The notes below the pieces were generated by a model. It searched no databases and was not told the DNA's origin. It saw only the letters and a program-made list of their open reading frames with translations. 64,000 nucleotides of DNA from Spironucleus salmonicida. Its lineage: Eukaryota. The DNA is taken from contig NC_090597.1 of NCBI RefSeq assembly GCF_000497125.1, positions 941,797 to 1,005,796 on the forward strand, read 5' to 3'. A program made the translations under genes and the position numbers. Position 1 is the first letter of the stretch. Each line of letters opens with the position of its first letter. Below are positions 1,193 through 26,053 of this stretch, one piece after another.

Positions 1193-3973
1193 ATGACAGA
1201 CACGGGGACTTGCTCAAATGCCGTCTTCAACTGCAAGGCTGGTTATTTCTGCCCTGCAGAAGATTCAACTACCGTAGAATGTCAACCGTGCTAGGAATAT
1301 ATGGAATATGGTTAAAGTTGCTACTGTGAAGATACCAAACCAATAAAGAACTGTCAAGCATGTACGGGCAAGCAGTGCTCTACATGCGTGCGTAATACAT
1401 TTTTATAAAATGACAAATGCATAAATTGTCCTTTATACTGCGATACCTGTGCAAACGCAAATTCTTGCATTACGTGCTCCGAAGGCTACGAAAAGAACCC
1501 ATATACTGGTCTTTGTGAGTTATCCTGTAAAAGCGAAGATGGATGTCTGCCAGTCGGATTATATTTCGGTGATCCAAGTACATAAATGTCTATACCTTGC
1601 ATTGCGAATTGCATTATTTGCTCTTCAACCACCACTTGCGATTTTTGCCACCCTAAAGGATTTGTCATTACACTAACAGGCCAATGCACTAAGAAATGCG
1701 ATGATATTCAAGACGGATATTACTGTGAAGACGGAGTTGCAAAGCTTTGCGATGATGATCTGACGGCAGAATGTACATGTGGCAATGCCTCCTATTGTGC
1801 TTCTTGCCATTCCACTGGGAAAAGGTGCGAAAAGTGTTTGCCAAATATGAACTTTAACACATCTGGCGAATGTGCAGTTTGCTATGACGGATTTTCGCTC
1901 GAAAGTAGTCAGTGTATGCCCTGCACTGGAAGCTAATCATCTCCCTGCACATGCAAAACGGCGGAAAATTGTTCTACCTGCGATACCGATACGGGAAAAT
2001 GCAAAACATGCTAGGGAAATTATGATGTTAAAGGCGAGATTCCGTGTTAAAACTGCTTACCAGGATTTTATAAGTAAAACTCTGCCCTGGGTGATATTTG
2101 CATATCTTGCCTTGGTAATTGCAAAACCTGCTCTTCATACTCCACTTGCACAGTTTGCAATGATGAGTATGTGCTGTAAAGCGGTAAATGCGAAAAAACA
2201 TGTAAAGTAGGTGACGGTAGTTGCGCCATGAACCAAATCTGCGCCACAATCTGCAAAGATTGCACCGGAAACTGCGCCACGTGCAAGGGTTCTGTAGACA
2301 AGTGCGTGACCTGCAAATCCGGCTTTATCTTAGAAAATAATAAATGTACAGCGTGCGGCAAGGATTGCCTGAACTGCGACGGTGATAAAAGTAAGTGTAA
2401 CCTTTGCAAGGACGGATTTATTAACTTCGATGGAAGGTGCAGTATCTGCATTGGAAACACGACGTAAAAGTGCAAGTGCGGAATGGCCGAGAATTGCGCA
2501 ACATGTGGTGATAAAAATTCTAATGTTTGCGGAAACTGCTTACCCGGATTTTTCAAGGGAGCCGATGCGGGGAATAATACATGCAAAGCCTGCGATGAGA
2601 AATGCGCAACCTGCATCTCAGAAAACACCTGTTCATCCTGCAAAAATGGGGATATTTTAAGCGGGAATTCGTGCGCTGCCTGTACGACTATTTAAACTAC
2701 TGCCTGCATTTGCAAAGATGCCACAAACTGTCAAACCTGCGATTCTACTGATATGAGCAAATGCAAAACCTGAATCAACAATTTTGACCCAAATGGATAT
2801 ACCCCTTGCTAAAACTGCTTGCCAGGATTTTTCAAGGTGAGTGATTCCGGGAGTGATACTTGCACGGTATGCCCTGTTAACTGCACAACCTGTAACTCTG
2901 GATCAGTTTGCACAGCTTGTAAGGTCGAATTTTTACTCGAAGATGATACGTGCGTAGCCTGCGATGACGCTAACTGCAATGTCTGCCCAAGTAGAAAAGA
3001 TAGATGTGTATCATGCAAAGATGGTTTTTCCGTGGAAAAAGATGAATGTGCAAAACAGTGCATAAAAGATGAAGACAGCTGTGCTATGAACCAAATATGC
3101 GACGACATATGCAAAGACTGCACAAACAACTGTGCCACATGCAAGGATGCTGTAGACAAGTGCTTGACGTGTGAATCTGGCTTTATATTAGACAATGATA
3201 AATGTGTAGCGTGCCCCGATGGCTGCGCGAACTGTGACGGTGACAAAGCCATCTGCAAGGTTTGCAATGATGATTTTTTCACCGAAGATAATACCTGCAC
3301 TAAGTGTGAGGGAAATAATACGGAACAGTGCAAGTGCGGGGAAGCAGTTAACTGTGCTACCTGCGATTCTTCTGAGATGGGAAAGTGCGGAAACTGCATC
3401 ACCGGATACAAAAAAGCCACAAATGAGACCTGTTCAGCCTGCGCTGATGGCTATTTGATGGTTGGAATTGCCTGTGTGAAATGCAATAATAATTGTGCTA
3501 CGTGCTCAAAAAGCCTTGAAAAGTGCGATACATGCGTCAGGTCTTACAGCATTAGCATAAATTAAACGTGCGAGAAGGATTGTACGGAGGTACTGACAGA
3601 TGGCAAGGTGTGCGTCGCCGAAAAGATAGTGGATTGTGGAGCCAACAATCAGGTAACTGCGTGCAAATGCAAAGATGCTGCAAACTGCTTCAAATGCGAT
3701 AGTTCTGATAAGGGAAAATGCGAGTCCTGTATGACAGGCTATAAATTTGTAAATTAAAAGTGCGACAGCTGCGCGGACGGGCACACCACCGTTGGCTCGT
3801 TCTGCTTCCCCTAGGGTGATACGCTAAGTACCAACCTCTCTGGTGGCGCTGTTACAGGCATTATCATCGCAGTTCTAGTAGCTGTTGGTGGAGTCGCCGG
3901 TGGTATTTTTTGGTACATGAAGAAGTCAAAGCTTAATTAGGAGATTGACGAGTAGAAGTTTGTCCTGAAGTGA
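1193..3973 (+). pseudogene. Large cysteine-rich membrane protein (CRMP/VSP-like) gene, 927 codons, interrupted by one in-frame TGA at 2771-2773
   Basis: With TAR=Gln a single frame runs from ATG 1193 (MTDTGTCSNAVFNCKAGYFCP) through dozens of CXXC/CXC motifs. It ends in a TM segment ([28 protein letters not shown]), the tail KKSKLNQEIDEQKFVLK and TGA 3971-3973. The internal TGA reads CKT*INNFDP where the paralog at ~33240 reads CKTCINNFDP. Confidence 0.85.
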
Positions 3974-5379
3974 TAATTTAAGTTATTTCAGATATTATGA
4001 TTATGTATATGGAGGCATCTTGTGATAATGAGAATATAAGGGTATAAAATTAGTAATTTACTATTATTAAATATGAAGAAGAATTCGAGTTACTTAAATC
4101 TTACATACTACTCACTATTTCTTCACAATATTGAAATACTCTGTTTATCTCCATTATATCATTAAGTAAGCGAACGTATACTAAATATTATAATTAATTT
4201 AGCAATCTTATCAATTCTGTGCTAAACTTTATCATTACATAACTATTTTGCGAAATTCAATTTTATGTCTTGCGTTGGATTGCAAAATTGGCTATGAAAC
4301 TTGGAATGGTATGAAATAGATATTGATAGTTTTAGTATGAGATTAGTATTTAATTGGGTAAGCGAATGACAAGTTGAGCATGCGTTGAACTATATTTTGC
4401 GGTTCTAAGTTTATATTTGATTGTTAATATAACTTTCTAATTTTCATACTATTTAAGATAATTATTTTAGGTTATGGGTATGATTTTTCTGTTTTGTGAG
4501 TCGATTTGTAATGTAATTGTGAGGAAATGGTCGTCAAAGCAAGATATAGTATAAAATGTATAAGAAGATTAAATTGTAGATTAAACTACTTTTGTAGTTT
4601 TTGAATACTTATATGTTGAATTTAATGATGAATACTTAGTGATTAATCATAATTGCCTTCTTCATTTCTATACTCTGATTATCTTCTACAATTGTAATTT
4701 AATAAGCATGTTAAGTAACTATTATAGTTCTATTTTATCAAAAAATATACTATGTATATTATATATTCTAATTATTATTTACACTTCTCTTCTATATAGG
4801 TTTTATGCATAGTATCACACCTAACAATCTGATGCCTAGTTAAAGTGAAAATTTTCTATTAAGGTATGCTATAGCAACACAGCTAACGCTATGAAAATAA
4901 TTATACTGTAATCAGTCTTGTAGTAGTTAATTCTATATGGTTCATGTAATTTATGCAACAATTATTTAATATTACCCCTGCTCTGTCGAGTGCACTTTTT
5001 TGAAAAAGTATAAATGTGCCCAAAGAGGAAAAGTTGCAAACTTATTTAATGGAAAATGCTCATATTCTTTTTATTTTGTTTTTCTTGTTGTGTTTCGTAA
5101 TATTCATTTTAATCGAATTCCGCTCCAGAATTGGAAAATCCACAAAATAACTCTTTGTCGAACAATCTTTAAATACTTGACCCAATAAATAATACAATAT
5201 ATCTGTGAAAAGAAAATAAGTATCTAAAGCTAATTTGGGCATAACTAGGAGCCATTACAAAATTAGAATTCAAAACTTATAATCTAAATTATAGCCATCA
5301 ACTTATTTCCATATCATAACTAAGATGTTATTTTAGTAAAAAAGAATTATTGTAAAATATTAGTAAAAATATATTTATT

Positions 5380-6600
5380 CATGAAAATTTTAAATTCTAT
5401 ATTTTTTTATAACAATTAAAATTTACAGAATAGAGTAATATCTGATGAAGGGGAACATTATATAAATGTGATATAATTTATTTCCAGTAAATTAAGGAAA
5501 TTTTTATTAGAATGATGATAATGATGATGATAATGAAATTAAAAAGTTAATAATTATACTTTGCTAATTAGTAAAATTTTAATGTTAGCACTAGAAATGT
5601 AGATTTAGACTCTATTGAATGCTGTTTAAATATAGTTTAGTATGGAATTGGAATAAATTCAGAAAAATAGAATATTTACCAATTGACGAGCCACTGTCCC
5701 CATTTAAAGGCAGATATAATAAAAAATATACCTACCTTAGAATCTAAATAAATACGAACGGCTTTTATGTCAGGATCAGTCAAAAAATAATTACTGTTTT
5801 ATATTGTAATCTTATTCTGATTTTGGGTCCAATAATGGTTAAAATGTATTATATAGTACCTTGTTTATAAATTTCCATATAGTCTAAGAGGTATGGGGTG
5901 TGAAAATTTTATACCTCTGAAAAGTTATCAAATATAGTTTAACTAATAAATTAACCTTTACTTACGATACGTAGCAACAGGTACAAAAGTAATATTTACC
6001 TAAAGAATTAAAAGTCAAGTAATTCAAAATTTTAACTTTTGAATATTTTCATGATTTGGAATAAAGATCAAAAACATAAAATTAACAAAGTTGCTTTTAC
6101 CAATGATATTATAGGTTATCTATAATGAAAATAAATATACATTTACTTGTTCAAGTCCAGTCATAGTAGATCTATATAATAAATTAATGGGAGGAGTGGG
6201 TGTCTAGGATTATAATATTCAACTCATAGGTTGCTAATAAAATTTAAATGAGGGGGTATTAAATTTATGTCATAGACTCGACATCTGTTTAGTAAATTAT
6301 TAGATTTACTAGAAATCAACAATATTGAAAATCTTGAATTTAAACAATATTTGAATGACCAATGAAATAGATTTCTTTGTACACGAAGATAAACTACAGT
6401 AAATCTAATGTAGAGCATAAGCTATTTACTAACGCTGTTCTAATGTACAATCTCACTAAAAAACTAATATTTAATGATAATATCTTATCTGCTGTCTGTA
6501 GTAAATGCTAGAACTGGAGAACATTCTATATGTGTAGTAGATACATTAACAAAAGAAAAGAAATCAAATACAGAAAGCGATACTTGTAAATATTACTTTT
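5380..6600 (+). mobile_element. Decayed piggyBac-like (PGBD, DDD) transposase relic; boundaries approximate, no TIRs found
   Basis: Motifs in colinear order: YLPIDEPLSPFKGR (IDE at 5682-5690); frameshifted IYLPQNLNKY; C-ENF(Y)TSEKL at ~5899-5926 (DNFYTS-like, 1-nt deletion); YLPKELK at ~5993; PVIVDLYNKLMGGVGVQD (6157-6210) then LDICLVNYQIY; C-terminal CSKC..RTFYMCSR (6497-6541). Confidence 0.8.
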
Positions 6601-7259
6601 TCGGAAATAGCTTTTAGCCCGTATATCCAATAGCAGATAAAGTCATATACATAACGCTCCCATCAGTAGCGGGTAATATTTTTCGAAAGATTTGGTCAAT
6701 GGCTTTGGTTGAATAACCTCCTCACCAGGAAACAGCTAATAAAGTTAATATTAGTATTATATTTGTTATACTTTTTATAATTTTAATTATTAGTAATTAT
6801 ATTATCTAATATAAGGATTATTTTTAGTTTTATTATATTATATAATATTAATCCTAATCGTTAATTTTTGAACGAGCTATTAAGATTTAGTTGTTTGGGC
6901 GATTATAGCTTATTGTGTATTCGCATTAATAACTATTATCTGCTACACGAAGATAATATGAAATCAGCACTCTTACTTTTATATAAGGAACCTAATCATT
7001 TAAACCTATTTTTAATGAAATTTTACTACAACTATATTGGTGTATAATAATTATTTATTTTTTCACTCCTAATTTTCATATTTTAAATCACTAGATATAT
7101 TCTTAAAAGCGATGACTATCATTGAAATATCCCAAAACATAAAACGATTAATCTTACTCACTACTAAGACTTATAGCCTTTTTACACTTCTACCTATATT
7201 AAAAGTACTAGGTATTACACATCTTCACTTTTAACATCCTGAGTTAAACTATTTTTACT

Positions 7260-8294
7260 CAACCAGACATAGCAGCTGATTCCACAGAACACCTCCTCTG
7301 CATCACAAACATTATTTGTCAAACCAGCGCTAAGGGAAATACTTTAAGTGAAAACCACTGATTTTACTCCACCATAACTTAAATAACTGCACTCATCTTT
7401 AGCACTGTTAAAAACTACGATTCTATTGGCATGAACGAGTAATAAACCTATACTAAGTGTTACAGTCTGTCCAGTATGATATATTGCGAAACCTGCAAGG
7501 CTTAGTTGCTCTAGTATGTTTCTGTAAGCTTACGAAAGTTTACAGGCTGTGAATCTGGTCATATTTTGATAATGATAAATATACTGCACGCTTAGAGGGA
7601 GACAACATTTAAGATAATAACAATATTAGATAAAAAATTTCCAAGGATACCTTTCAAATCAAATGGTAAGTATGCATTCTTTCTATACGAAGAGAACTTA
7701 AAATGCTAACACGCTTCAGCTGTTAGTTGCATCACCTACAACACGGCAATCCAAAAAATGATCAACATGCATCACTAGCTGCAAACGGTACCGGCTTTAG
7801 CTGAGATAGCGGAGTTTGATGGTGGAAATTGCATGCACAACATCCAGGGAACTGTTGTAACCCTAGCAATGCACAATAGAGCTTTGCGATACGTGTGGTG
7901 ATGCTCATTAAATGGAAATTGGTTAATTTGTGTTACCCTAATTGTAGTCATTAAATAACAGTTAGATAGCTTACATCCGTGGAGTTGCGCCTGCTTATGA
8001 TAGAGTAGGTTAAAGTACTTTATACAGATATCAAGATGCCTAAACTTATTTTAAGTATGATGAAAGTAACAATAAAGAATGTCATAATTACATGCACTAA
8101 TACAAATTCAAAATAAAGCATGTACAGGTTTGTTGATTCCTTTGTGTCAAGTGTATAGCGCTATTTATTACTAACCAAGTATCTGGAAGTCTATCTACTA
8201 TATGGCGGCTTGAATTGTGATTCCAGTATTAGGTGCCGTATGTGCTATCGACGGCAGCCTGATTTCTTATGTTATCAAGAAAGGAAAGAAATGA
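7260..8294 (+). pseudogene. Heavily decayed CRMP pseudogene (5' limit approximate)
   Basis: Remnant CETCK and TGTGAATCTGG..ATAATGATAAAT match gene 1193-3973 near 3170-3200. The 3' end reads IVIPVLGAVCAIDGSLISYVIKKGKK-TGA (8292-8294). Many frameshifts. Confidence 0.7.
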
Positions 8295-8977
8295 TGGTAA
8301 TAGTTCCCGAAAAATATATACGAAAAATGGGTTCGCAAGGTAAAATGCGAAAATTCAATTTTACTCGAGGAATACATTATTATGTTATATAATCGCTTGT
8401 AGAAGTATTATATGGGATAGTTATATCAGTAAAATGAATTTCTTTTTGTTAGTACGTTACATGTAGTTAGGTATGAAGCAATATGTACTACATCATAGTT
8501 AGAGGTAGTTGATAGCACAATCTAAGGATGCATAACAGAAATTAGTATAATAGTCCCAACTTCTACTAGCTGTTAGTTCAATAGCATTATTAATACACTC
8601 GAGACTAATTGAAGTTAAATTTTAATATCGCAAATGCAAAATCATACATTCTGATACTCAATTTGTATTAGTAATATTATCTGATATTAAATTAATACTC
8701 GTTTATTGATAGACTAATTTTTGCAGATTCATAAAGTATTCAGTTTCAGCGTGAGATACATTAGGTATCTACACTGAGCTACTGCGTCTTAGTTTATCCT
8801 AATTTTTACGTTCAGTTACAAATTTGTTACTAATCATACGATATACAATATGATTTTAATATTATATATTAATTCAAAAAATATTTTAATATATATTTCC
8901 TATATAATCAAAGTTACTGAAAAATATTTTGTATTATTACATACTCAGAATATTACTAAAAATAGAAACTGCTAAAA

Positions 8978-9945
8978 ATGGAAACCAAGTGCGACAACGG
9001 TTCTAAAACATGCCCACTATGCACGCATGTCCATCCGATGCCACTACCTCTAATGAGAAAAACTGTGTCTAGTGCAATATTGTCGGTAACGACGGCTGCA
9101 ATGCTTGTGCAGCTGATGATGCTGACGTCTGCACTGGGTGCAACCCAAAATTTTACTTTGACCCCGACACTACCGAATGCGTTGCATGCTCCTCCAACTG
9201 CTCTACTTGCGATAGTGCGGTTCAATGCACTGTCTGCGCCACCGGCTTCAAACTAGATGGTGGCACATGCGTAGCCTCTGATGTGATCGCATGCGATGCA
9301 GATAATTCTTGATAAGACGACTAATTCTGCGAGATAAAGACCTCTGGGAACACTTGTATTCCTTGTCCTGCTTCTTGTAAGAAATATACTAGCTTGACAA
9401 AGTGCAAAGAATGCAAAAATTACCACGATATGAATACTGACTAGACATGCACGGAATAATGCAAAGGGTTTATAGAGGTTTTATAAGCATGCGTAAACAA
9501 CATAATTATCCCTTGTGGTAGCTACAAGCAATAGACCTCCTGCAGGTGCGGTCCTGTTGCTTAGAACTGCCTCACTTGTTAGGCTACTGCAGTACCAGAG
9601 GGTGGAACATGTACAGATGCTAGTTGTACATGTGGAAAAGATAGTCCTGACACTTGCACTGGTTGCATAGATAAGCGTAATTATGTTTTTATAGTGGGAA
9701 AATGCACTGGTAGGGGTACTAATAAATGCTTAACTTGCCTTCCTGGCTATATCTTGAAGGATGATAATTGCACTGATTGTGCAGTAGAGGCTGAAAAAGT
9801 AGGGGACTTCTGCTTCATCCCCAGAAAGGAGGCTGGTAACCTCTCAGGTGGCGCGGTAACCGGAATTATGATTGCTGTGCTTATAGTGGTTGGTGCTGTC
9901 GGCGGAGGTCTGGTGTATTACTTCATCAAGAGGGCCAAGAAGTGA
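8978..9945 (+). pseudogene. CRMP with short basic tail; frameshift near 9010-9020 and in-frame TGA at 9310-9312
   Basis: METKCDNGSKTCP, then a shift to the frame HACPSDATTSNEKNCVQC...CDADNS*QDDQFCE... ending [38 protein letters not shown]. An alternative in-frame ATG lies at 9010. Confidence 0.85.
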
Positions 9946-10758
9946 AAAATATTTTAATATGTAATTCATTGGAATGTGGCATTTTCAAACTAGGTTTTGT
10001 AATAGTAAGCTTTTCAGTTATACTCTATTTAATAATTTATAGATTTCATTGTTTTACGTTATAGAATAAAAAGATTCAGCATGTTTTAAAAATTTTGAAT
10101 CCCAAAATATTAATTGTAGCGTAATATACTCTTCAGTATAACGTATCATAACGTAAAATAATAAAAACTGCAATTTCAATGTATCCAGTTTCATGAATGG
10201 ATGATAGTGAAATGCCGTGAAATAATGATAGTGCGCTAGCGATACATTGAGAGAAAGTACTGTGAATATGTTAAATTATAGATTTGATACTTTAGGGCAG
10301 AAGCATAGATTCTGTGCAAATGGTGGTAAATCTAATACTATTTACAATTAGGTATCGTGATTTATCCATTTTTCGTTGTATTGTTATATACTGAAAATAT
10401 TCAATATTAGTATTAGTATTATAAAATTTGAAGTTACTAATTATATATGTATATTATCAGATTGAGCAATTATCTATTTGCAAAACTGGCAAAGTTGTTA
10501 CACGAATCTAAATTAGACGCCGATTATTAATAGCAAAGAGAAAAAACATAAAATTTGTTTTTTGTGCCCATTGTTAGGTGTACTATAAGTAAAGTAGATT
10601 TTTGTTAATATCTGATTTTTCAATTTAAAATATATTCATATAAACATATAACTAATTATAACGTAAAAATAGATAGAAACAGAAACTCATATTCACTATC
10701 GATAAGAATTATACATATAAAGTTACCTATTCCATTTATTTTAAAATGAGGAATATCA

Positions 10759-11439
10759 TGCACTTCTTGTTCTGGAAATGCAACTGAAAAATGCTAGTGT
10801 GATGCAGCCATTAATTGTGATACCTGCGACTCTTCAGACTCATCAATATGCGGAACCTGCTTGACCGTGTTCAAAATAAATGACATTGGTGCTTGTTCAG
10901 AGTGCATATAGGGCTACTTTATGTCGGAAAGCGGCTGCTAGAAATGCGACACAACTTGCCGTTCCTGCCAGAATAATGCTAATACGTGTGTAATTTGCGC
11001 TGATTCGCACGAACCTACTATTCAATAAACATGTTAGCCTATTTGTGATTAAGTGATAACTGCTGATTAGGTATGCGAGGATGGAACTCCAAAATCTTGT
11101 GGAGCAGAAACTCAAATTGTAGCTTGTTAATGTACTGGAAAAGTAAATTGCTTTACATGTCCTTCTGATAATTCCTAGTGCAAAAGCTGTTTGAGAAGCT
11201 ACAAGCTGCTAAAAGGTGATTGTAAGACCTGCGTATAAGGCGCAGAAATGATAGGCGACTTCTGAATTGGTGGTATATTAGAAGACTAAAATCATAGTTT
11301 ATCTGGCGGCGCAGTTGCTGGAATAGTCATTGCTAGTATAATGATAATCGGAGGTATCTGGGGAGGTGTGTTTTGGTATCTTAAAAAATCGAAAAGTTAG
11401 CTTAAAAATGTAAGCTAACCTGTTACTTTATAGGAGTGA
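10759..11439 (+). pseudogene. 5'-truncated CRMP pseudogene with in-frame TGA at 11263-11265
   Basis: CTSCSGNATEKCQCDAAINCDTCD...GDF*IGG...LSGGAVAGIVIASIMIIGGIWGGVFWYLKKSKSQLKNVSQPVTLQE-TGA. There is no in-frame ATG at the 5' end (TGA at 10747). Confidence 0.8.
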
Positions 11440-11583
11440 ATTTAAAGTAAAGGAAATATATAGTTTTTCAGGAAATTCATTACTGTAGCTTTTTATATAT
11501 TAGAAAATTCTTTATTAATTTAATACATATAATATACTTATTTCAATTTGTTCATTAGAATAAATTAAAAGTTAATAGATTCT

Positions 11584-12930
11584 TCATTCAGCAGTCATAA
11601 CGCCAGAGCCGAACCTCACCTCGGAGCCCTTCTCGGCTTCGCTGCTCGCAGCTGGTGCAGAGCCGGTAAGGATCATCTGGATTTCTTCCTGGGTCTTGCC
11701 CTTCGTCTCAGGAGTGGTAAAGAGCAATACAGCGGTTGTGATTCCCATAACTATCAAATAGGTAACGAAGGGAGACCACGCGGCCGCTTTGGTAAGAATT
11801 GGGAATAGAACAACGACAAAGATGTTGGGGATATAGTTGAAGCTGAGCAGGATTGAAGACAGAAGAGACTTGGCTTCAACTGGGAATAGTTCGGAAGCAA
11901 AAACGAAAAAGATGGGACCGGGTCCAATTTCGAACCCGATGATGAAGAAGATGGAGGCAGTAATGAGAAGGGCAGTATTGGATTTCGCGAGGATATAGTT
12001 GATCATGAGGGCGACCTGGGCAACGAAGCAGATGCCGACACCGCCGAAGAGGAGGATCTTGCGGCCGAGCTTCTCGATGAAGGCCAGGGCGCCGAGGGTA
12101 GCCACAAAGTTGACACCGTTGATAATGATGGAGCCGAAGACGGAGGACAAGGGATGGACACCGCCCCCTGAGGTTTTGAAGGTATCTTTGAAGGTCTCAG
12201 TGGCGTAGACGATAACGGCGTTGATACCTGTACATTATTAGTTGAGACCAAGCATGACAGAGAGGATAAGGACCTTGAGGTACTTTTTCTCCTTGAACAA
12301 GAGCATGGGGGAGATTTCCTTCTCTTCTCTGGGTTTGACATCAGGTACAAAGAAGAGTAAGACAAAGCCCATGAGAGGCCATATGAAAGTAACAACAAAG
12401 TTGACCCACCATGCATTATATTTATCTTGATAAGTACGGATGGCAAGTAAGACTAAGGACGCAACCAATATACCAAGGGTGACGTTGAATTGGAACATGA
12501 CACCGAGGAGACCTCTCTTGCTGGACTCTGCGTGCTCACCGACGATGATGATGCTGGGCTGCTAGAATAATACGACAAAGAAGCCGGCAAAAAGCCTCAT
12601 AACCATCCAGTAGTATACATTGAAAGGGATGCAGAGGAGAACATTGAAGATAACAGATCCGGCAGCTCCGACTAAGCCTGTCTTCTTGTAGCCTAACCAG
12701 CTGACAATAGGAGCGAAGGTGAGAGAAGCGAGTAGGAAGCCTACCAGGGAGGCGATAGATAGATAGGGTAGTAAAGTTTGCACAGCAGCATCAGCAGCTG
12801 TAAAATTATTGGAAGTACCAATAGCCATATAGTAAAGTTTGATGATATCAGAGGAAAAGTTTGCAATGGTGAAGCCGAGCGTCTCGGCTGTTAACGACTA
12901 AATTGCGAACAAAATTCCGAATGAAACCAT
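11584..12930 (-). CDS. Sugar porter family MFS transporter (hexose transporter-like), 448 aa
   Basis: Three ORF-track pieces join in one frame when TAR=Gln, starting MVSFGILFAIQSLTAE. Sugar-porter motifs: GE..SKRGLLGVMFQ, NQQCTGINAVIVYA (QQ encoded TAA TAA), IEKLGRK, GPGPIFF..SELFP, PETKGKT. Many hydrophobic helices. Confidence 0.95.
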
Positions 12931-12934
12931 TTAT

Positions 12935-12947
12935 GAGGAATGGGAAG
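12935..12947 (-). promoter_or_regulatory. C-rich motif just upstream of the transporter ATG
   Basis: Minus strand reads cttcccattcctc-ataaATG within very AT-rich DNA. A C-rich element near start codons has been described for Spironucleus (from recollection). Confidence 0.45.
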
Positions 12948-14589
12948 ATATTTTAAAAACTTCAATAATCACTTTAATACACTTATAAGAATTTAATCGT
13001 TAAAGATCCAATATTTTCGTATATGTTTTTATATATTATATTAGATTAGTTAGCATAAGTTACTTACTTCATGTTTTTTGTAATCATATGTTTTTATAGC
13101 AAATTAAAAACTAAATTGAACACATAATAAAGATTTTTACATACATATAATAGTATAAAAATGAAAACTTAAAAAACAAATATTATTTAATTAATTATCT
13201 AAATATATTATATTTCACAAACTTATAGACTATAAGTATTAATTAAGTTTTTAATTGTATTGTATTTTAGTTTTATTATCCACATATATTCTATCTTTAC
13301 CAATATGCAAATATAATAAATATTATAGTTACTCTACCTCAAATGTACTACTTTAAATACATTATTATAGTTATAGTAGTTAATTTTAGCATTTTGACAT
13401 ATTAACTTGCTAAGTATTTGTATTATAGTTTTTAAACACTAAAATTATTAATTTTAGCATATTCATGTTAATAAGAAATATTAATAGTTATTACTCTCAC
13501 TAAAATTTTATAATGGTAAACTATCATTGGTCTGATATAGAGGAGGTCACTCTTTGTAATCTCGTCAAAGCTTAAGGTAAATAATGGTATAACATATAAT
13601 AAATTTATTTTCCATAGTTGACTGTCAATTAAATTAAATCCAAATCTTCTATCTTTAAAAAAAAACTGAAAACAAGTTTAACACTCGTGATGATATAAAG
13701 GAATTTATAGCTAATTGTAATACTCTAAAAAGGAAATCAAGACATCATTTATTGAACGAAATTATTCAAATATTTGGTAATTAATGATTATTATTGTTTA
13801 TCAAAAATAAAAACGTCTTACTTGTTATCTTTAATTACATACTATCAGTATATTTCTTACAGTAGTATCTATACAATCATTAACTAATTTTTGATACAAA
13901 TCAAATAAAACTCTCCACAGCAAATTATCTGCATGATTTTATTATGAATTTACAAACTTATACTAATTATTTCATCTATTACTAATTGAATTTACCCTCT
14001 GAAAGAAACATAGAATTTCTAAATATTTATTGCATGAATTTTTTCACACTAATTTTACTCCATACTACCTTATTATTAACATATCCTTCATATTATTCCA
14101 AAACAAACCCCAATCTAAGTTTCTCAAAAACCCTTACTTACATTGCTCTCTTATCAAAATCACAATACCCCTTCACAATAATATAAATATTCCCCTTCCC
14201 TATTAACCCAACTCACATCTCCATTAACCCAATACTATCATCAACTACGATCCCCATCCACTATTTTTGACTACAACCAAATATGTAAAAACTGAAATTT
14301 ACATTACTAGCATTATTATACAGTAATTATCATTTTTCCCTTCCTATTTCCCCAAGTTTCGACCGTCCACATCCGCTTCGCCTGGTAAATTACTACTCAG
14401 TTGCAGCGAGATGTATCGAAATCCGCATCTGACCCTTAAATTCCCGATTCGCCCTGTAATTCTGCACCGCTTCAGGCGCTCAAATTACCACCAATTTCGC
14501 ACTTTTTTGTCTGAAAATTTTGTGTTCCAACTGCCGCAAAAAGCAGATTTTGGCATCTACAAAAAATACAAATCGCTGCACTGCACTGC

Positions 14590-14692
14590 GCATAATATTA
14601 CTATATATAATATTATACTACTATACTTAATATTATATTATTATACATAATATTACATAACATAATATAATATACCATACCATACCACATCA
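14590..14692. repeat. Low-complexity ~5-nt periodic tract (TATTA/CATAA/CATAC) downstream of the large minus-strand gene
   Basis: cataatattactatatataatattatactactatacttaatattatatta...ataccataccatac; repeated at ~45069-45171. Confidence 0.5.
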
Positions 14693-14714
14693 TCCTTTCC
14701 CAGACGCCGTTATA

Positions 14715-17700
14715 TCACTCTGATTTCAACATCACAAGGCAGCTTACCTCGTTCTTGCCGTACCCGGACGCGTCCAGCCACTGCAGCTGGATCTCGTTGT
14801 TGCTGTACACGTACTTGTAATCGCTATACGGCTCCGCACGCAGGCTCTTGCTGTTCATGCTCTCGAGCCAAAAGAACGTGCCCTGTACAACGAAATTCGT
14901 GTGGTACGTTCTGTGAGAATTGTTACCAGAAATCAGCTCGCATGGTTAGTTTACTTCGCCTTTCTCAATAAGCGGTGCCTTTAAAATCAAGCGTACTGGC
15001 ACATTGCTCTAGAAGAGGAAGCTCGCGCTGAACTCATATCCAAGCAAATTTACTAGAGCCGCAATATCAAGCGGTTTGCGCGCTATAAAGAAATTGGCGA
15101 ACTAAAGATTAACGTTTAGCTGCTAAAGTAGGAGCTCACGATAGTTTAAAACAACTTATTAGTTATCTTTTATATGATTTAATGGGTAGTAGATCTAGTA
15201 GGTGCTGAGGAAAAGTTACTGGAGCTCTTGGGGAGACATATTAGTAAAATCTGCGCTGTCATTAAAGGCAACAATATTCCTGCAATCTAGTTTTTCGTTC
15301 ATAGCATAATTTAAAAGTTCCGTCAAACTAGACGCCGGGGTCGAGTTCAAGACGTTCTTGCAGCTTGTTATTAAATTTTAAAAATCTTCCAAATTGACCA
15401 CATCTTAACTGAAAAGGACAACGGATGCGATATTGATATCCCTACAAACCAGACGCTGATTGACAATCTCAGCTGAGAATTTATTTTTAATCAGCCTCGA
15501 AAATTCTTTATATGCGCTATCAATGTCGCTAAACTGCTACTAATATCTCTTTTTCCTTTAAAACTACTATAGCTCGCTTAAATCTAAAGAATCTCTTATC
15601 TACAGATTATCATAATATGTTTTCAAATTAAATGAATTATCCGTGTCATATTCTAGTCTATACTAATGATACTAAACCGTGCTACTAGAAATTTAACGAA
15701 TAAAAATAAGAGAAAGTGACACTGAGTTATAGACAACTTACCCCTGACAGTGAGAAAAGTTGTTCTAAAACTGCACCGGATTTGCTGCTTTTACAATAGT
15801 AGGAGAAACCTCAGCAAAAAACGCCGGAGTTTCGAGTTTCTGCACTTTCGGTTACCTAATAACTAATTTTTCAGCATTTTCACACTTCATAATCGCCCGA
15901 AGCCTAGCTACAAATTTTCCAAACTGCTAAGTCCCAGATTTGCCGATAAGTCGATTTTCGACATACTCCAAAACGTTAATCCCCTCGATTTACGCCGAAA
16001 TCAGCATTTCATCCGTAACCTACTCCTTGAAAAATGTTGAAATCACCTCCAAACACCGCAAATGCGTAGTTAAGGAAAACACGTTAATAACGTATTATAA
16101 CGCCTTCATATTGCAATCATAATATCCCAAACTCGCCTAAAGCACCTCAATCTACTCCCCAGCAACCTCTTTTTAATCTCCTAGAATTCCTATGCATACC
16201 CTCTAAATAGCATGAAAATACGTGAATTTACACACAAACTTATCCAAACTGTAGCACTAATCGCCGTAAATGTTAACTAACTGAATGAGCTTCAATTTAT
16301 CCTCGTCGCAAAGCGCGTAATTCGCACGCTCGCAAACGGTCACAGTCCGAGGGTTAAATTGGACGATTTATTTCACATTTTCAAACAAATTTTTATGTTG
16401 AAAAAGACCGAATTCGATCGCAAATTCGCTCAATTTCACCAAATCCGTTTCGAAAAACCAGTCGTTTACGAGCGAGGTCGCGAACAATTTCGCGGTCTAA
16501 AAGTTTTAAAAGATGAATTCTCTGCAGAGGAAATTCTTGAATTTTGCCATTTCTCCGCGGCTGTCAATTCGCAGGATTTCCTGCGTTAGCTGGAGCGTAG
16601 TTATGAGGTTTGGGTCGCAAAGTTGCGTTATTTGCGTCAAATTGAAGGTAGTTAAAAAGCGAGAAAGGGGTGGAGCGGAAAAGGAAGGGGTGGATGGGAG
16701 AGGAGCGGAAACTCGACTTACCTCAGCGCCCTGATCGGCCAGAAACCAAACGATCTCGAAGTCCAAATGCTCCATCAGCGCGAAAAGCGACGTCCCGGCG
16801 TCGATACGCTTCAGGCCCACGCCCTGTTGGACTAAAAATTCGAACGCTGGAAGGGAGGTGATATAATGAACTGGCGAGAGCCCCTGCGCGTTGAGCAGCA
16901 GCATTGCGGGGGCTAATGCGGTGTGCTTTTGCACGGCCTCCAGGACCTACTTCTAGCTGATTTGAGTACTTTATGGCATTTAATGTACATTCTATTATCT
17001 CGAACTCGCTGTCTGCTCCACTTCTCTACCATCTCTGAGCGCGATGTGCGCGCAGGTGTCCAGATTTTTATTGATGGCCCCCTCCAAGAAAAGCTCGTAA
17101 ATGGGGCTGGGAGAGCGCTGCAGCAGCTCCTCGAACAAAATTTTGCCGCCTTTTGACTTCAACGCCTTTAGAATGCTCAGTTGGGCGTCAGAAAACAGCT
17201 GCAGGAATATGACCACGTCGTCGCGCTGCAGCTAATTTGCAACTATAAAAAATAAGTAATCGGTGTGCGAATTCTCCATCATGAGGTCGTAAAACTTCGT
17301 CTTCAACATGGTCTTCAGGTGCTGAATTAGAGCAATGAGTAGCTGAGAAGAATTACGCGCAAAGCCCTGAACGGCGATTGAGTAGCTCGTAAATTTGAGC
17401 TGCAGAAGAGTATTTGCGAGTTTCACGGCTTCGGATGGCTGCGACAGATGTATAGAATTGAAAAGGGAAAAGATGTCGCTGCTTGTCAGCTGCAACTCAA
17501 CAGATCTTTTTACAATTTTTTCCAGCAGATAGAAATTCGCGCGGACGGTAAAAGTCTTACTTACGATGCTAGATGAGGTGCTTTAAAGCTGAACTTGAGG
17601 GGATTTCGCTAAATAAAACTCCTCGATGTCAGATTGCAGCTTTGCGAGCTGATTTTCTGGCAAAGGAGCGCAAACAGCTCCTTCGCTATGTCTTGGACGA

Positions 17701-17777
17701 TAGTTAGCGATTAGAATGTCAATCTAGGAAACTGTAAATTTGTATACGTTTTCCGCCAAAACATCCGATAAGAACAT
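14715..17777 (-). CDS. Large hypothetical protein (~1020 aa) with an ankyrin-repeat-like segment; true start may be 18120
   Basis: One frame with no TGA from ATG 17777 (MFLSDVLAENVYKF) to ...VMLKSE-TGA (14717-14715, AGTGA context). It includes ORF-track pieces 17232-17495, 16995-17216 and 16506-16934. The segment NAQGLSPVHY..FEFLVQQGV..GTSLFALMEHLDFEIVWFLADQGAEV resembles ankyrin repeats. Confidence 0.8.
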
Positions 17778-18120
17778 ATACGGGTTCGAAGATGTCCGTA
17801 AAGTGTGCGATGTCGCCTATTCTTATCAGCTCGGGAAGTGCAGACGGGAAGAACAGGCTAGTTCCAGGCTACTCAAACTTTACAACAGATACTTTTTGCT
17901 GATTGAGCTTCTTGTAGGAAAATCCAGGTGTCAGTGTGGGCATAGTTATGTCAGACTGCACCTGGTAGAGGCTCTGATTAGACACAACATAGTCGTTACG
18001 CCGCAGCAAAAATTTTCTCGGCTTGAAGATTTTATGGACGGTCAGAGAATACTGCTGGTCGTTAACAGTTAGCTACTGGAACTTGCCTCTGTTGGAAAAT
18101 TTGGACTGCGTGATCAGCAT
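17719..18120 (-). CDS. 133-aa hypothetical ORF overlapping the start of the large gene in another frame (separate gene or its 5' part)
   Basis: ATG 18120 (MLITQSKFSNRGKFQQLTVNDQQYSL) in cacaaaATG context at a sharp AT-to-GC boundary. It ends ...IQIYSFLD-TGA at 17721-17719. Confidence 0.6.
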
Positions 18121-18125
18121 TTTGT

Positions 18126-18137
18126 GAAGTGGGGAAC
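18126..18137 (-). promoter_or_regulatory. C-rich motif upstream of ATG 18120
   Basis: Minus strand reads gttccccacttc-acaaaATG, with similar position and composition to the motif before the transporter. Confidence 0.45.
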
Positions 18138-18738
18138 AAGGTAAATATCGTTATTATATCAAATACAAAGTATTTTTTAATTGTGATATTTATTGAATAT
18201 GGTTTAATAATACAGAACTACCTGTAAACGTTTATTCTATATAAATTTAATAAAATCTAATTCGGCCGTTATCTCCATATTGGTAAAATTCCCATACTAT
18301 TCTCAAAAAACACCGTATTTCTATCGCTATATTTTGAAACGAACTTTATCTAAACATAAATATATTTGTGAATCCTGTGAATTTTATTACTATTATAACT
18401 AGTATAATGCAAAAAATACATTACTTTCCTACAATTTTGTAAACTTCTATAGTTGCTCAAAACTTTCAAATCCTACCAATCCGCTCTACATACCACTTGA
18501 ATAAATCAATTTTAGTCATTATTTCGACCGTTAAACTCGAATTAGCACACCCACCAAAATCTTTAGTATTTTCCTCCACTCCCCTTGTAACAAATTTCAT
18601 TTTTTTGATTTGCTATACCGAATTTATCACGTTCCTCTTTTACATTAGCATGAAAAAATAAACTAATTATACTATTTAATGTATATTATTTATATATTAT
18701 TCCATTCCAAGTTCTGATTTCGCTCCAAAATTCATTAA

Positions 18739-19861
18739 ATGAACACGCCCATACTGAAATCCAACGCGTCCACCAATTGCACAACCACACCTAAATGCGC
18801 CCTCGTAGCTACTTATCCTACAGGCTACCATTGGAGAGGCCTAAAATTCGTCTGAGTACGTCTCACAAACGCTCATGCGCGCCATGCGTTCCCTGCACCC
18901 TTCTCGCCCTCACTGATGCAGTAGTACTACCTGCCTGAAATCAGCTCGCTGGAGAACCCAGTGTACATGAACCAGTCGTTTCAAGCGATTGCCTGTCTTG
19001 GGCTGACGGTAAGTTTATTAGCGCAAATACCTGCACAGCCTGCGATGGTAAATGTTCTCAGTGTGTTAATAGGGCTACTGAGTGTAGCGAGTGCAAACCT
19101 GGAAATATTCTTTCTGGAACCACCTGCGAGGCCTGTACTGCAAACTGCGCTAATTGGCCTGAAGACAAAGCAGTATGCTAAATATGCTCGAATGGCTACT
19201 TTTTAAAAGACGACTAATGCGCTACTTGTTCTGGGAATACTACTGCAAAATGCTAGTGCGGTTAAGCCGTCAATTGTGCTACCTGTGACTCTTCAGACTC
19301 ATTAAAATGCGGCACCTGTCCTACCGGATTCACTAAGTAAAGGTTAGGTTATTGCGATCAGTGCGCACATGGTTACTTCGGTGTCGGCAATGACTGTGCG
19401 AAGTGCAGCTAATCCTGCAAGACCTGCATGAAAATCACTGAAACGTGCATATCCTGCAATGATAAGTTTACAATGAGCATCAATCAGACCGGCGAGGTGA
19501 ACTGTTCCGATCCTGTTACCGAAGGAAAAGCTTGCGCTTCAAGGGTGGAAGTATCCTGCGGAAGCGAGTAGTAGATCACCACCTGTAAATGCTAAACTGC
19601 GCTTAATTGCTTAGAGTGCAACAGCGAGGATCCTACAAAGTGCAAGTTGTCCATGAAAGTATTCAAATTCGAATATGGGCTCTGTACTATTTGCGAAGAC
19701 GGTTACGATAGCCTGGGGGACTTTTGCTTCGCGTATTAAGCAAATTCAGGTAGAAATCTGTCAGGTGGCGCAGTAGCAGGTATCGTGGTCGCAGTATTAG
19801 TAGTTTATGCGCAGTTTGAGGTGGCCTTGCATATTACTTCATCAAGAAGGCCAAGAAGTGA
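18739..19861 (+). pseudogene. CRMP pseudogene (degenerate 5' end, Cys losses, frameshift and TGA in the TM segment)
   Basis: CXXC frame from ~18973 (SDCLSWADGKFISANTCTACDGKCSQC...) to NLSGGAVAGIVVAVLVV, then a frameshift to [18 protein letters not shown] (19859-19861). Confidence 0.85.
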
Positions 19862-20805
19862 AAAGTATTTTCATTTTTCACATTAGTATTTATTATTATT
19901 ATATAGATACATATGAAATTATTATTTTATCACCCATCTAAACTATATCAACAAGACTCAGCTGAGTTGCTATACTACCAAATCCAGGCTTCTAGTAGGT
20001 TCCTAGTCAAATGCTAGACATCTGGGAAGTTTTCTTAACTTTTTCAAAATATATTATAATAAGTTAAGTTGTTTATAGGATATAGAGTTTACCAATTATA
20101 CTATTGTGTTAATATTTTGAGATTATAGAAATAGCACCATTGGACGGTTTAGCGTAACATGTATGAGTATAATACTATTTTTAATACAATAATCACGCCT
20201 TAAGGTAATCTTTGGGTGTAGGTTTATACTATTCAATAGATTAAATTTATATAATCTTCATTTTCAACTAATGGGTAGAGAATATAAAACAATACTATTA
20301 TATAAAATATCATTTTCCAATATTTTATCTTATTCCAAATGAAAGTATTTAAAATTTTAAGTTTCATAAATACGAAATTTTTAACTTAATTTAATATTAA
20401 TTTAAGTTTTTAAACAGAAAAGCACAATTTATCAATCTCCAAATATTTTATTCATATAATCAGTAAAAATACTTCTATACTAGACATAACCAATTAAAAT
20501 AACTATATTTTAATGAAAATGCAAATACTTTCGTTTTCTCAAACTAGATATGCTAAATTTAGCAAATGTAAAAATATATTAAACTCTTGAATATTAATTA
20601 TAGCATATGTTTCAAAATCCTCAGAATTCTAAAACTTACTATTTATATATTATTTATCCTTATTCAAATCACACTATTGTATCTAAATTTAGACACTGAT
20701 ACTTTAAGTATATATAACATAATAAGTTAATTGGAGAAACAAAATCTTACCAATGATCCATATAATCATTTATACCTGGCATAACGGAAAATCATATCGC
20801 TTAGA

Positions 20806-22689
20806 ATGCTAGGCACCTGCTCTAGCACTACTAACAACTGCACAGGAAAAAGTTTCTGTCCAGACTAACCTGGTAAGCTCACTGATTGCCTGCCCTGCAA
20901 AGATGAATGTCTCACATGCTCGGGACCCTCTGCTAGTAACGCAATTTGCGAAACTTGCCGTCCTGGAATGTACCTTACGGACCGCGATACTTGTGACGAC
21001 TGCGATACGAAATGTCTCACCTGCGCAAGTTACAAGAATGCATGTACAAGTTGCAGGGTAGGGGAGAAACTGAGCTCTGATGAGTGCTTTACGGCGTGTA
21101 CATCTAATTCCGACTGCGCTAGCAACCAGTTTTGCGAGAATAAGCTGTGTTATACCTGCTTAAGTAATTGCGCTACGTGTGCAGACACGACATTCCACTG
21201 TACGAGCTGTTCTAATGGAAGCGGTCTTGTACGTGGTTACTGCAGGAAATGTACTGCTAGTAATTGCGATAACTGCGACGGATAACTTAACACCTGTAAA
21301 AAATGTAGTCCTGGTTTTAGACTATAAGGTACCTCCTGCTAGCCATGCTCAGTTACGAATTGTGCGAATTGCGATGCAAATAAAGATATCTGCAATATAT
21401 GCAAAAATAACTTCAGTATGAACAACAATACCTGTTCTGAATGTGCTCAAAATCTTAACTAAAAATGTTAATGCGGCATGGCCGAGAATTGCACTACATG
21501 CGGTGCTAACAATTCTGGCGTTTGCGGAAGCTGCTTGCCAGGATTTTTCAAGGGGGGAGATACAGGGAGTGATACTTGCATTGCGTGCCCTGTCAACTGC
21601 ACAACCTGTACTTCTAGCTCCGTTTGCACCGCTTGCGAGGATCGGTTTTCTATCGATGGTAATAACTGCGTAGCCTGCGCCGACGCAAACTGCAATACCT
21701 GCTCAACTAACAAAAACACATGCACGGCATGCAAAGATGGCTTTGTATAATAAAGCGGCAAATGCGAAAAACTATGCAAACCAGATGACGGCACCTGCGC
21801 TATGGACCAAATCTGCGATAAGATCTGCAAAACCTGTACCGGCAACTGCGCTACGTGTAAGGACTCTGTAGACAAGTGCGTGACCTGCAAATCTGGGTTT
21901 ACTTTAGAAGACGATAAATGTGAAGCGTGCCCAAACAACTGCGCGAACTGCGACGACAATAAAGCCACCTGCACGCTTTGCAGGGACAACTTTTTCGTCG
22001 AAGATAATATCTGTACTAAGTGTGAGGGAAACACGACAAAACAGTGCAAGTGCGGGGAAGCAGTTAATTGTGCTACCTGCGATACTTCCAATAAAGAAAA
22101 ATGTGAAACCTGTATCACCGGCTACAAAAAGGCTACAGGAGACACCTGCTCTACCTGCTCAGATGGTTATCTGATGGTCGATATGATCTGTACAAAATGC
22201 AATCCCAAGTGCGCAAGATGCTCCAAAAGCCTCGAAAAGTGTGACACCTGCGCCAGTTCGTACACAATGAGCATCAACTAGACGTGCGAGAAGGATTGCA
22301 CGGTTAAACTGACAGATGATAAGGTGTGCACGACCGAAAATATAGTGGATTGTGGAGGCACCGATCAGATAACTGCATGTAAATGTGGCACTACTGGAAA
22401 TTGCTTCAAATGCGGTGGTTCGGATAAGGAAAAATGCGAGTCCTGCATGACAGGCTACAAATTAGAAAATCAACAGTGCACTACCTGCGTGGATGGGGCC
22501 ACCGCGGTGGGTACTTTCTGCTTCCTCTAGGGCGAAAAGACCGATGTCAACCTCTCTAGTGGCGCAGTTGCAGGCATTATCATCGCGGTTTTGCTCGTGG
22601 TGGGAGGAGTCGCCGGTGGTGTTTTCTGGTGCATGAAGAAGTCCAAGGTTAATTCGGAGATTGAGACATCGAAGTCTAACATTAAGTGA
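20806..22689 (+). CDS. Intact cysteine-rich membrane protein (CRMP), 627 aa, long-tail type
   Basis: MLGTCSSTTNNCTGKSFCP... with no in-frame TGA. CXXC-rich, TM LSSGAVAGIIIAVLLVVGGVAGGVFWCM, tail KKSKVNSEIETSKSNIK-TGA. Confidence 0.93.
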
Positions 22690-23230
22690 TAATTTACTTG
22701 ATATCTGAGTTTAGGGGAAATATGGCGGCATTAAAGGTTAAAGTATTCTAGAGGGATAAATTACCAATCATTATTAAATTTCTAAACCGATCTAGATTTT
22801 GTTTGGGGACAGCGGCACATATGTTTCTATTGGAGATGAATCATTGTATGAGCAACCCTGATATTTTTAAATACGAGAAGTTAGTGATAATCAATATAAT
22901 TAATTTGGTAAATTCAACAAGCTCGAGTGTTTTCCAATAATACTTATCAGCACAGAAATAAATTGTGAAATTATATTTCATAGTTAGTTAGGAGTTCTAG
23001 ACCTGACCTTGTTAGGGGAGGTATACCCGATGTCAACTTTGGAAGAGTACGCTGCTTGTTTCGCTAAATTTGTGATTTGCATTTCTACTTGCAGTTCAGA
23101 TATAGATGTTTATAATTCTATGCATGGTATATAATATTAACTTTAGATGTTCCTAACGTGAAAAGTTACGTCCTTAATGTATTAGTATATTAATATACAA
23201 GAATAAATTTGCAACATCCTAAAACGCCAA

Positions 23231-23470: not shown

Positions 23471-24759
23471 TCTCGATGACCTCAATGAGCTGATATTATT
23501 AATTATATGGTTATGACTGGTTTATGCTTTGTTGTTTTTCGTAGTTAGTTTTGCTATTAAATTCACCTTGCTGAAGTAGAAAAATAATTCAAATAAACAT
23601 AGAAAGTAAAATATTATTATATATAAAAACATTATTGTTATATTTCCTAAATTAAACAACGTTTATCATCGTCGTACGCTAGGCAGATGCAGAGGTAAAT
23701 GAATTAGTATTTAATAATGTCCAGATCTAGCATTAAAACTTAACTTGTTAGGTGCCTCCAGAGAGACCTACAGTTCGCTCCAAACTACTTATTTAGCTAG
23801 TATGGCAGAGTCTGGACCCTATGACAACGCCATACAGCATTATTACGCAACTTACAGCAAATAAGGATGTAAAAACATTTCTTCATTATTCTGTCTCCAT
23901 GCTCTAAGCGCGCATTCCTTCATACGAATTTTTGATATTATGTGCTGGTGGCTAGCGCTATCAATCTCGAAAGTTCAATAGAACAAGAGTATATTTTAAT
24001 ATTTTCTTCTCCATCACGCATACTAATTAACAGTCAAAGAACCCAAGCATTAACTGATGGGATAGGCACTATTCGCTTGTTTGACGATCTACCATATTTA
24101 TTTCAATATTGAAGCTCACTGAACCATAAAGCTTTGCATGCAATGGTAAGCAGGATACAAAGTGCATGATGGCAGGCATGTTACTTATGCAACATTTCGT
24201 AACAAACTAAATATCCATATAGATATATGAATATAATAGCCATAAAAATGAAAATGGCATACTACTTGCCTGGGTGAGTGCTTGGTTTTGGCTGGGCTTG
24301 AGCAGCGATTCTCTTACCGAGAGCGTCTACTAAAGTTATTTGATGGGGTCAGCTTATTGATAATGCTTGGTAGAATAACGAGCGAATCAAATTTAGCCAC
24401 CTGACGAGCCCACTGACATACAATTACAGTAGTATTACTGTATGGTAAGGCCCATATGGCGCATATCCACTTAGTCTAGACTCTTCCGTCGACCTGTATG
24501 CATTCGGTACAGTAGCTAGAAAACTAGCTCCCTGTGACGTTTACTATGTTAGTCTAAGACAAGGATAGTTTTCTGCTAGAATAATAAAGTACGAACCTGT
24601 TACGACTACTTAATTCATCTAATGCAATACCTACCACAACCCACCTACCTGTATTTTCTGTGTTACGCCCAGACGCTAAATACATTCACAGACTGCTAGC
24701 AAAGTGGTTCGTAAATCGTAAAATTTCTAACAATTACAGAGGGATCAGCTGCATAGCTG

Positions 24760-25594
24760 CTAATATAGCAGTACGCTAACCTTACCCAACGACTCCTATT
24801 ACTCCCAACACGCCAACCACACTGCCCGCAATCGCCCACGACCTATTTGATTCATCTCAGAATCCCTATTCATATTCCAGTACAAGCCATCTATTATCTC
24901 ATACTCCTCCGCCTACTTCTCCTCATCCCCATAAGGACATTCGGCAAACAGTCCTTACACCCATATTGAGCGTCGCTGTATGAGATTCATTTTCTACGGC
25001 ATAGCACTCACCGTCCGGGTCAATACCTTCCACACAAGTAGTTGGAACACCCTCCTGAAAATAATTGTAGTTTGCGGTGCCGTCTCCGTGTATGGTTGTA
25101 ATATATACATTGTCATTGCGGGAATTGCTAAATATCGCAGACGAGAAAGCAGAGCGTTTTGAATAGCACCAGTGCAGTGCTTTGTTGGAATGTTATTGTA
25201 TGCCTTTGCACCATTTGCTCAGCATTCTCTATACGTCGAACAATCGAATAGACTATCTCACGCTTCCCTTCATTCCACCCGAATACAATTTGTGCAGGGT
25301 TGTGCGTATGCGGTGTACGGGATTTCGTCTATAAAGGCACTAAAAGGGACTGCAGCCTAGGCAGCGAATCAGTACTTCTTGCCGTCTACTATCTATATCT
25401 TGTCGGCATACCATCCCTGGTCCACCTTCGGGTCGTAGGTGCACATGACACAGTTCTCGGATCCTACGCTGGGGACTGGTAGACAGGATCGGCATAGCAG
25501 GGTTTTGCAGTGCCTTACAGCTTGCGGGTGGTCTTCTGTTTCGAACTGAGGAACTGTAGCATGATTCTCCTAAAGAGCACAAATGGGGGTTCAT
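24760..25594 (-). pseudogene. Decayed cysteine-rich membrane protein pseudogene
   Basis: Starts MNPHLCSLGESCY, with frameshifted remnants CVMCTYD and GCKDCLPN. A TM remnant DESNRSWAIAGSVVGVLGVIGVVG..LAYCYI lies at ~24760-24855. Confidence 0.6.
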
Positions 25595-26053
25595 GTTTTT
25601 CTATTTTGCTAAGTTGGGACTAGGTTGGGTATCCAGAGCTAAGCTCATGATGCGATTAGTATCCTGCATATTATATAAACTAGATACCAAAATTAAAATT
25701 CCGCTCCAATTAATATTAGACACTAACGTATTATAATAATTATGAAACCCTATGACGACCACAGAAGTCCACTAGCGGCCAGCACTCGCCCTGCACGGCC
25801 AGCTATACCATACTAGCATGCACAGAGTATGCAAAGCCACAGACAAGACAGTGGGTGATTGATACTTTGAGTTATCAGCCTGCATCTTCCAGCCAGCAGT
25901 AATTATTGCGCCTCTCCGGAGCACAGTTGTACCCAGTACGAGCATTTCCACTTTCCCTTATTCCCCGAGTCTGCTGCTCAAATCCGTACGGTATCAGCTC
26001 CAGAACCGTTAAAGGGGACAGGTGGTCATTTACCCATATTATCCGAAATTCTA

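Follow-up and report, generated by a model that had tools for sequence, protein, structure and literature searches.

In the 64,000-nucleotide stretch of Spironucleus salmonicida DNA analysed here (the window), positions 5634-6315 of the plus strand very probably represent the decayed coding remnant of a cut-and-paste transposase of the piggyBac superfamily (PF13843, DDE_Tnp_1_7), located in an AT-rich spacer. An earlier note on this DNA had proposed that non-coding AT-rich DNA of a diplomonad contains a dead piggyBac-family remnant, and this proposal is borne out by the agreement of the phmmer search leading to PF13843, the hhalign comparison and the shuffle tests; of the extent 5380-6600 that it had assigned to the element, just 5634-6315 is demonstrable.

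The host is described in PMC9509377 as a systemic parasite of salmonids. Long open reading frames (ORFs) are found in the window only if Gln is assigned to TAA and TAG, for instance an ORF of 1020 residues including 43 TAA/TAG codons. Several of the ORFs match the Pfam VSP family (PF03302), and one encodes an MFS sugar transporter, of which the nearest database relatives are the hexose transporters of Spironucleus salmonicida (94% and 92% identity). The remnant is enclosed in a gene-poor spacer of about 5 kb with 24-26% GC, bordered by the end of a cysteine-rich protein gene at 3973 and the start of the next such gene near 9010, both flanking genes being of the cysteine-rich membrane-protein type. 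The GC content of the remnant (24-26%) is like the intergenic mean of S. salmonicida and not like the coding mean, for which PMC3916229 gives 25.4% and 36.2%, respectively. A short (ATG/ATA)n-like run, ATGATGATAATGATGATGATAATGA, is located at 5504-5546, just upstream of the remnant. To the right of the remnant, one contig from DNA run X1 over 6468-6824 carries 8 differences from the window (within 6560-6790), and the adjoining contigs are identical to it; this version of the spacer may be allelic or paralogous.

Reading frames are named hereafter by codon start (A, 5601+3n; B, 5602+3n; C, 5600+3n). Direct searches gave no match at E<=10, either to PF13843 for five fragments and three whole-frame translations of 334 residues (Pfam) or to PDB chain sequences for two fragments (phmmer), and a word-indexed search for longer proteins with 6055-6351 gave 93 candidates with none at E<=10. 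The remnant is also without a match to the PF13843 model at the gathering score, its pieces being short and frame-split, and weak matches being dropped by HMMER filters. We attribute the blank first searches, which are the chief evidence against the piggyBac finding, to the short length of the pieces and their split over frames. Significant homology to piggyBac family members was reached by transitive and profile searches. After phmmer comparison of the frame-B reading of 5857-6351 (165 residues) with 1,835,955,588 representative proteins, a single protein was identified at E<=0.001, herein P0004 (220 residues; E 1.9e-4, 37.8 bits, 33% identity, two matched stretches), the E-value being helped by the presence of the matching segment twice in P0004. 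This protein matches PF13843 with E 8.5e-21 at profile positions 276-349 of 349, and its use as a query for longer proteins yielded 186 that passed E<=1e-5 out of 8000 candidates scored. PF13843 is present in all 120 relatives of P0004 among the matches listed, many of which bear the name piggyBac transposable element-derived protein 3-like or 2-like; their source organisms include fishes, insects, a tick, Hydra and a snail. These animal 'PGBD3-like' and 'PGBD2-like' proteins (P0005-P0124) were employed as the piggyBac comparison set.

From 98 of these 120 proteins (480-700 residues; the others were dropped for length) we constructed a family HMM of 602 positions, which was run with hmmsearch --max over six frames of 4000-8200. 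Two colinear matches were detected, 6127-6315 on HMM positions 416-480 (13.7 bits, i-E 1.1e-6 at Z=1) and 5652-5726 on HMM positions 233-257 (-2.0 bits, i-E 0.061). Using a 40-protein family alignment as the reference, hhalign aligned frame-B residues 178-235 (6133-6306) with columns 453-511 (P 2.5e-6, probability 88.8%) and, colinear with them, frame-A residues 22-131 (5664-5993) with columns 273-393 (P 0.0043, probability only 8%); for frame C it returned just an out-of-order match of 12 residues (P 0.069) and no match to the Cys domain. With 121 family proteins as queries against the 64-kb window (table 6), tblastn produced 295 HSPs at E<=1. Counting one copy of the remnant, 93 of them start in 6100-6199 in frame B, with one more at 6097, and the D1 block was hit at E<=1 by 14 of the 121 queries, always in frame A and always on the DE..PFKGR motif. 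Residues 276-403 of P0051 gave a single-frame HSP over 5670-6017 (E 0.079). The remaining starts are scattered as ones and twos, except for seven on the minus strand at 11113-11292. These weak HSPs (E 0.02-0.7), with a duplicate near 41590-41770, lie on ...IYFSSTLTSYNL just downstream of the hexose-transporter gene, and the queries were six fish proteins and the unnamed P0051, which is also the source of the long D1-to-D2 HSP; they were taken as chance because the profile control stays at background for this site (65.7 chained, 21.9 local).

Translation of 4700-6900 in three frames with tables 1 and 6 confirmed that the signature blocks listed in the earlier note are present at the places claimed, and the ensemble is well above chance (0/300 shuffles). 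The D1 block at 5634-5783 (plus strand, frame A) includes ...IEYLPIDEPLSPFKGR... and retains the catalytic Asp (GAC, 5685-5687). It is followed at 5889-5993, on the same strand and in the same frame, by the D2 and GT.R.NR-like blocks, which read RYGV, then TGA, then KFYTSEKLSNIVQL...TIRSNRYK. The interval 5994-6132 (plus strand) contains the frameshift from A to B, the hhalign frames differing by +1, with 139 bases opposite 59 family columns; inside it are a second frame-A TGA (6126-6128) and MIWNKDQK, a possible match to the W.D.K block of the family, of which the placement is ambiguous in the frameshift-aware alignment. The D3 block at 6133-6315 (plus strand, frame B) reads SSPVIVDLYNKLMGGVGVQD...LCHRLDICLVNYQIY, and LDICLVNY is in frame B with SSPVIVDLYNKLMGGVGVQD; its third catalytic place is GGT (Gly, 6199-6201), and the conserved Asp that comes after this place is retained.

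The catalytic places were located at 5685, 5902 and 6199 as claimed, with spacings of 72 and about 99 codons. Of the DDD triad, D1 alone is kept: TGA or Glu occupies the D2 place and Gly the D3 place, as expected for a dead copy. The replacement of D3 by Gly and the loss of D2 thus stand as proposed, but not the proposed change of D2 to Glu: the frame supported by the flanks, A, has TGA at 5901-5903, which hhalign paired with the invariant D of the family's DNyFtS, and the GAA codon for Glu (5902-5904) is one base on, in the neighbouring frame B. The segments ENFIPL (frame B) and KFYTSEKL (frame A) overlap each other. Frameshifts were correctly predicted, but fewer are needed than was thought, one being enough for the whole supported core 5634-6315, as the D1, D2 and TIRSNR blocks are all in one frame within 5664-5993 (tblastn with P0051; hhalign). 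Likewise, IYLPQNLNKY is literally present, as KIYLPQNLNKY in frame C, but its assignment as a block is ambiguous: it competes with the in-frame alternative YTYLRIQINTNGF, favoured by both tblastn and hhalign, and the frameshift-aware alignment picks the frame-C reading with a net gain of about 3.5 bits.

For measurement against chance, our own profile-to-DNA aligner, allowing frameshifts under penalties fixed beforehand, was applied to 5200-6800 and to its dinucleotide-preserving shuffles. The best local alignment scored 41.5 against 22.1 +/- 2.9 for the shuffles (maximum 31.8), and the chained colinear blocks scored 126.0 against 75.2 +/- 5.4 (maximum 94.8), neither score being reached in 300 shuffles; the frameshift-aware search recommended in the earlier note, here with our own family profile, gave a positive result. 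The reverse complement scored 22.6 local and 66.3 chained, and the reversed sequence 31.2 and 80.8, respectively. As natural controls, 15 AT-rich windows of 1601 bases were scored on both strands (30 rows). The four plus-strand rows containing 6124-6297 gave 41.5 local and 78-126 chained, and the other 26 rows gave 19-27 local and 62-82 chained.

The C-terminal scores are not independent of the P0004 match, because the family profile was gathered through P0004. The family was picked via 6151-6306 only, and hence the upstream part represents an independent test. For 5200-5856 alone, the chained score was 60.7 against 47.4 +/- 4.7 (reached in 1/200 shuffles) and the local score 27.1 against 20.0 +/- 2.6 (2/200), corresponding to z of only 2.7-2.8. 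When 5000-6150 was aligned only within a diagonal band whose position was fixed by the C-terminal match, the score was 69.8 against 42.0 +/- 6.1 at a half-width of 25 codons, 77.2 against 48.1 +/- 5.8 at 40 codons and 80.3 against 53.2 +/- 5.8 at 60 codons, none of them reached in 200 shuffles. Within the band of half-width 40, the support was moderate for both 5641-5900 (z 2.7, 4/200) and 5901-6150 (z 3.7, 0/200). The strongest signal comes from 6124-6315, including the YNxxMGGV... and LDxxxVN blocks. The N-terminal region 5000-5640 gave a weak signal (z 1.8, 11/200 at half-width 40) and is not claimed as part of the remnant, and the downstream region 6310-6800 gave, in the banded test over three widths, z of -0.6 to 0.1 (86-134/200).

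This downstream region includes CSKCQNWRTFYMC at 6494-6535 (plus strand, frame C), which had been taken as the terminal Cys-rich domain. We rejected this candidate, for which z is about 0: its CxxC...C pattern (C-x2-C-x8-C) appears in 50 of 1000 shuffles of 6310-6800, its Cys spacing is unlike the C-x2-C-x4-C-x6-C of the family, and its membership in the remnant is unsupported. Two other checks suggested in the earlier note gave no positive result. Among 28 left and 27 right TTAA sites, the best pair of inverted ends matched at 12/16, a level reached in 48 of 200 shuffles, for what is a single decayed copy at a single locus, and an inverted-repeat search around the remnant detected AT-rich noise only. 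In the parts aligned by hhalign, none of nine TAA/TAG codons is at a Gln-consensus column and one TAG is opposite a family Trp, in a comparison of low power. Across 3900-8300, the three presumed-RNA runs contain no more than scattered short contigs with a depth of 2-10, which are no evidence of transcription either way.

The remnant occurs a second time in the window, 30,478 bases downstream at 36112-36793 (plus strand), and this only other copy is identical in sequence and lies inside a tandem duplication of the host DNA. All of the 1401 columns are identical between 5300-6700 and 35778-37178, and the tblastn HSPs are mirrored at 36599-36829. By self-BLAST, the tandem duplication was found to be 30.7 kb in size (2687-33439 against 33165-63881, 96.2% over 30,786 columns), with a mosaic of identity that is about 100% at 4000-23000 and 71-98% at 2700-4000 and 24000-33400, the low-identity ends being the sites of cysteine-rich membrane-protein genes. 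This mosaic points to one of two histories: the duplication is very recent and its gene ends have diverged fast or been converted, or its middle has been homogenised. On chromosome 9 of S. salmonicida, PMC9509377 describes a 64-kb tandem repeat recognised from a 33-kb self-match; the duplication in the window fits this repeat and is presumably the same one. Since the second copy is within the host duplication, it provides no evidence of transposition, and the suggested role of the element as a source of rearrangement is left without support, both window copies stemming from segmental duplication of the host.

Taken as a coding sequence, the remnant is predicted to be an ordinary genomic fossil without present function, because only one of the three catalytic acidic residues is left, at least one frameshift is present and TGA stops interrupt it even under the host code. 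An autonomous element would have been inserted here once, which implies past mobility, and would then have become inactive and drifted to the intergenic base composition of the host, apparently over a great age and by passive loss, its ends decaying beyond recognition; the second copy arose by an apparently recent segmental duplication of the host and not by transposition.

Three other readings were weighed against that of a decayed piggyBac remnant. The resemblance might be due to chance, in that three frames of 25%-GC DNA, rich in codons for Asn, Lys, Ile, Tyr and Phe, would yield piggyBac-like motifs, and the blank direct Pfam and PDB searches, the chance level of the Cys motif, the out-of-order WGVK and the rival motifs read from shared bases (ATGTKV against TIRSNR, and KIYLPQNLNKY against YTYLRIQINTNGF) are all in its favour. 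Against chance, the sole match in 1.84 billion proteins (E 1.9e-4) is a PF13843 protein, the hhalign P of 2.5e-6 is accompanied by shuffle tests in which 0/300 and 0/200 reach the observed scores, none of the 26 natural control rows comes close, and the blocks are correctly ordered and spaced; we thus consider chance a highly improbable explanation. Still less credible is a live or domesticated gene derived from piggyBac that the host would read by recoding or programmed frameshifting, and to this we give next to no weight. Such a gene would be helped by TAA and TAG being sense codons under code 6, by spans of 95 and 74 codons between TGAs in frame A and by the short low-depth presumed-RNA contigs that touch parts of the remnant, although the latter are not evidence of transcription. 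It is opposed by the frame-A TGAs at 5901 and 6126, the frameshift and the loss of D2 and D3, by a GC content the same as that of intergenic DNA, by the absence of Gln consensus opposite all nine aligned TAA/TAG codons together with the TAG opposite Trp, and by N-terminal and C-terminal domains that are undetectable.

The third reading concerns the origin of the remnant, which may descend from a piggyBac gained by horizontal transfer, with the fish host or some other animal as donor, instead of from diplomonad elements of long standing. In favour of this, P0004 shows 82-86% identity to teleost 'PGBD3-like' proteins among the matches listed, the sugar transporter in the same window shares 94% and 92% identity with its counterparts in S. 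salmonicida, which parasitises salmonids, and there is no diplomonad protein among the matches listed. On the other hand, the identity of the remnant is about 30-40% over 50-60 residues to every family member, and the tblastn scores are much the same for fish, tick and unnamed proteins (35.4, 34.7, 34.7 and 33.1 bits). An affinity of the remnant to fish proteins was rejected, since an HMM made of arthropod proteins only outscored one made of fish proteins only, with 16.1 against 12.5 bits for one piece and 6.4 against -0.7 bits for the other, and the horizontal acquisition raised in the earlier note is accordingly unsupported. All of the 120 reference proteins were collected via P0004, which makes the sampling biased, and decay has gone too far for the remnant to be placed in a tree. 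Horizontal gain from an animal is thus unlikely, and we regard as similarly unlikely the broader proposal that the remnant is the first trace of once-active diplomonad piggyBacs, maybe derived from an animal host, the parasite being a tissue-invading one, and maybe seeding the gene-poor and duplication-prone spacers of the arrays of cysteine-rich surface-protein genes.

The piggyBac element of Trichoplusia ni employs the triad D268/D346/D447 with characteristic motif contexts, and the remnant has the same triad contexts at similar spacing, but no direct sequence link to the structure of this transposase was obtained for two fragments by phmmer against PDB at E<=10. With the superfamily at large, the remnant shares the order and spacing of DE..PFKGR, the D-N-x-F-T-S place, T.R.NR, P..V..YN..MGGV(D)..D and H..D....N. 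In P0051 the catalytic residues D281, D364 and D477 are 83 and 113 residues apart, compared with 72 and about 99 codons in the remnant. Unlike members of the superfamily, the remnant is without an open frame, D2, D3, a detectable N-terminal or Cys-rich domain and recognisable TTAA ends; its identity to them is about 30-40% in the best block only, and it is below the Pfam threshold when compared directly.

Among repeats of diplomonads, LINE-like retroelements are reported for Giardia, and RepeatMasker counts of 'DNA transposons' are given in PMC11787283 for S. salmonicida (29) and Hexamita inflata (2676). In the text consulted, the superfamilies are unnamed, and the words piggyBac, hAT, Mariner and MULE have 0 occurrences in six supplement files; the present remnant, from the same organism group, could be one of the 29 in S. 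salmonicida. The word 'transpos' is absent from the main texts of PMC9509377 and PMC3916229. A literature search combining piggyBac with diplomonad, Spironucleus, Hexamita, Giardia or Trepomonas identified no diplomonad element at the level of titles, abstracts and word counts, the only match for these genera with 'piggyBac' among the matches listed being a preprint on a myxozoan genome. The suggestion that the element could be undescribed is therefore sustained as to the name piggyBac, for which no diplomonad case was found in the literature, but is qualified by the 29 DNA transposons of unnamed superfamily already counted in PMC11787283. As far as our searches reach, this is the first documented trace of piggyBac in a diplomonad.

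With the remnant, a DNA-transposon superfamily joins the few kinds of mobile element that can be traced in diplomonad genomes, and it indicates that gene-poor AT-rich spacers in surface-protein arrays can keep recognisable fossils that are missed by both ORF annotation and standard domain scans. By itself it is a dead relic at a single locus, and its value would grow only if related copies, ends or intact genes were identified in other Hexamitinae, which would permit both the dating of the element and a test of its horizontal transfer.
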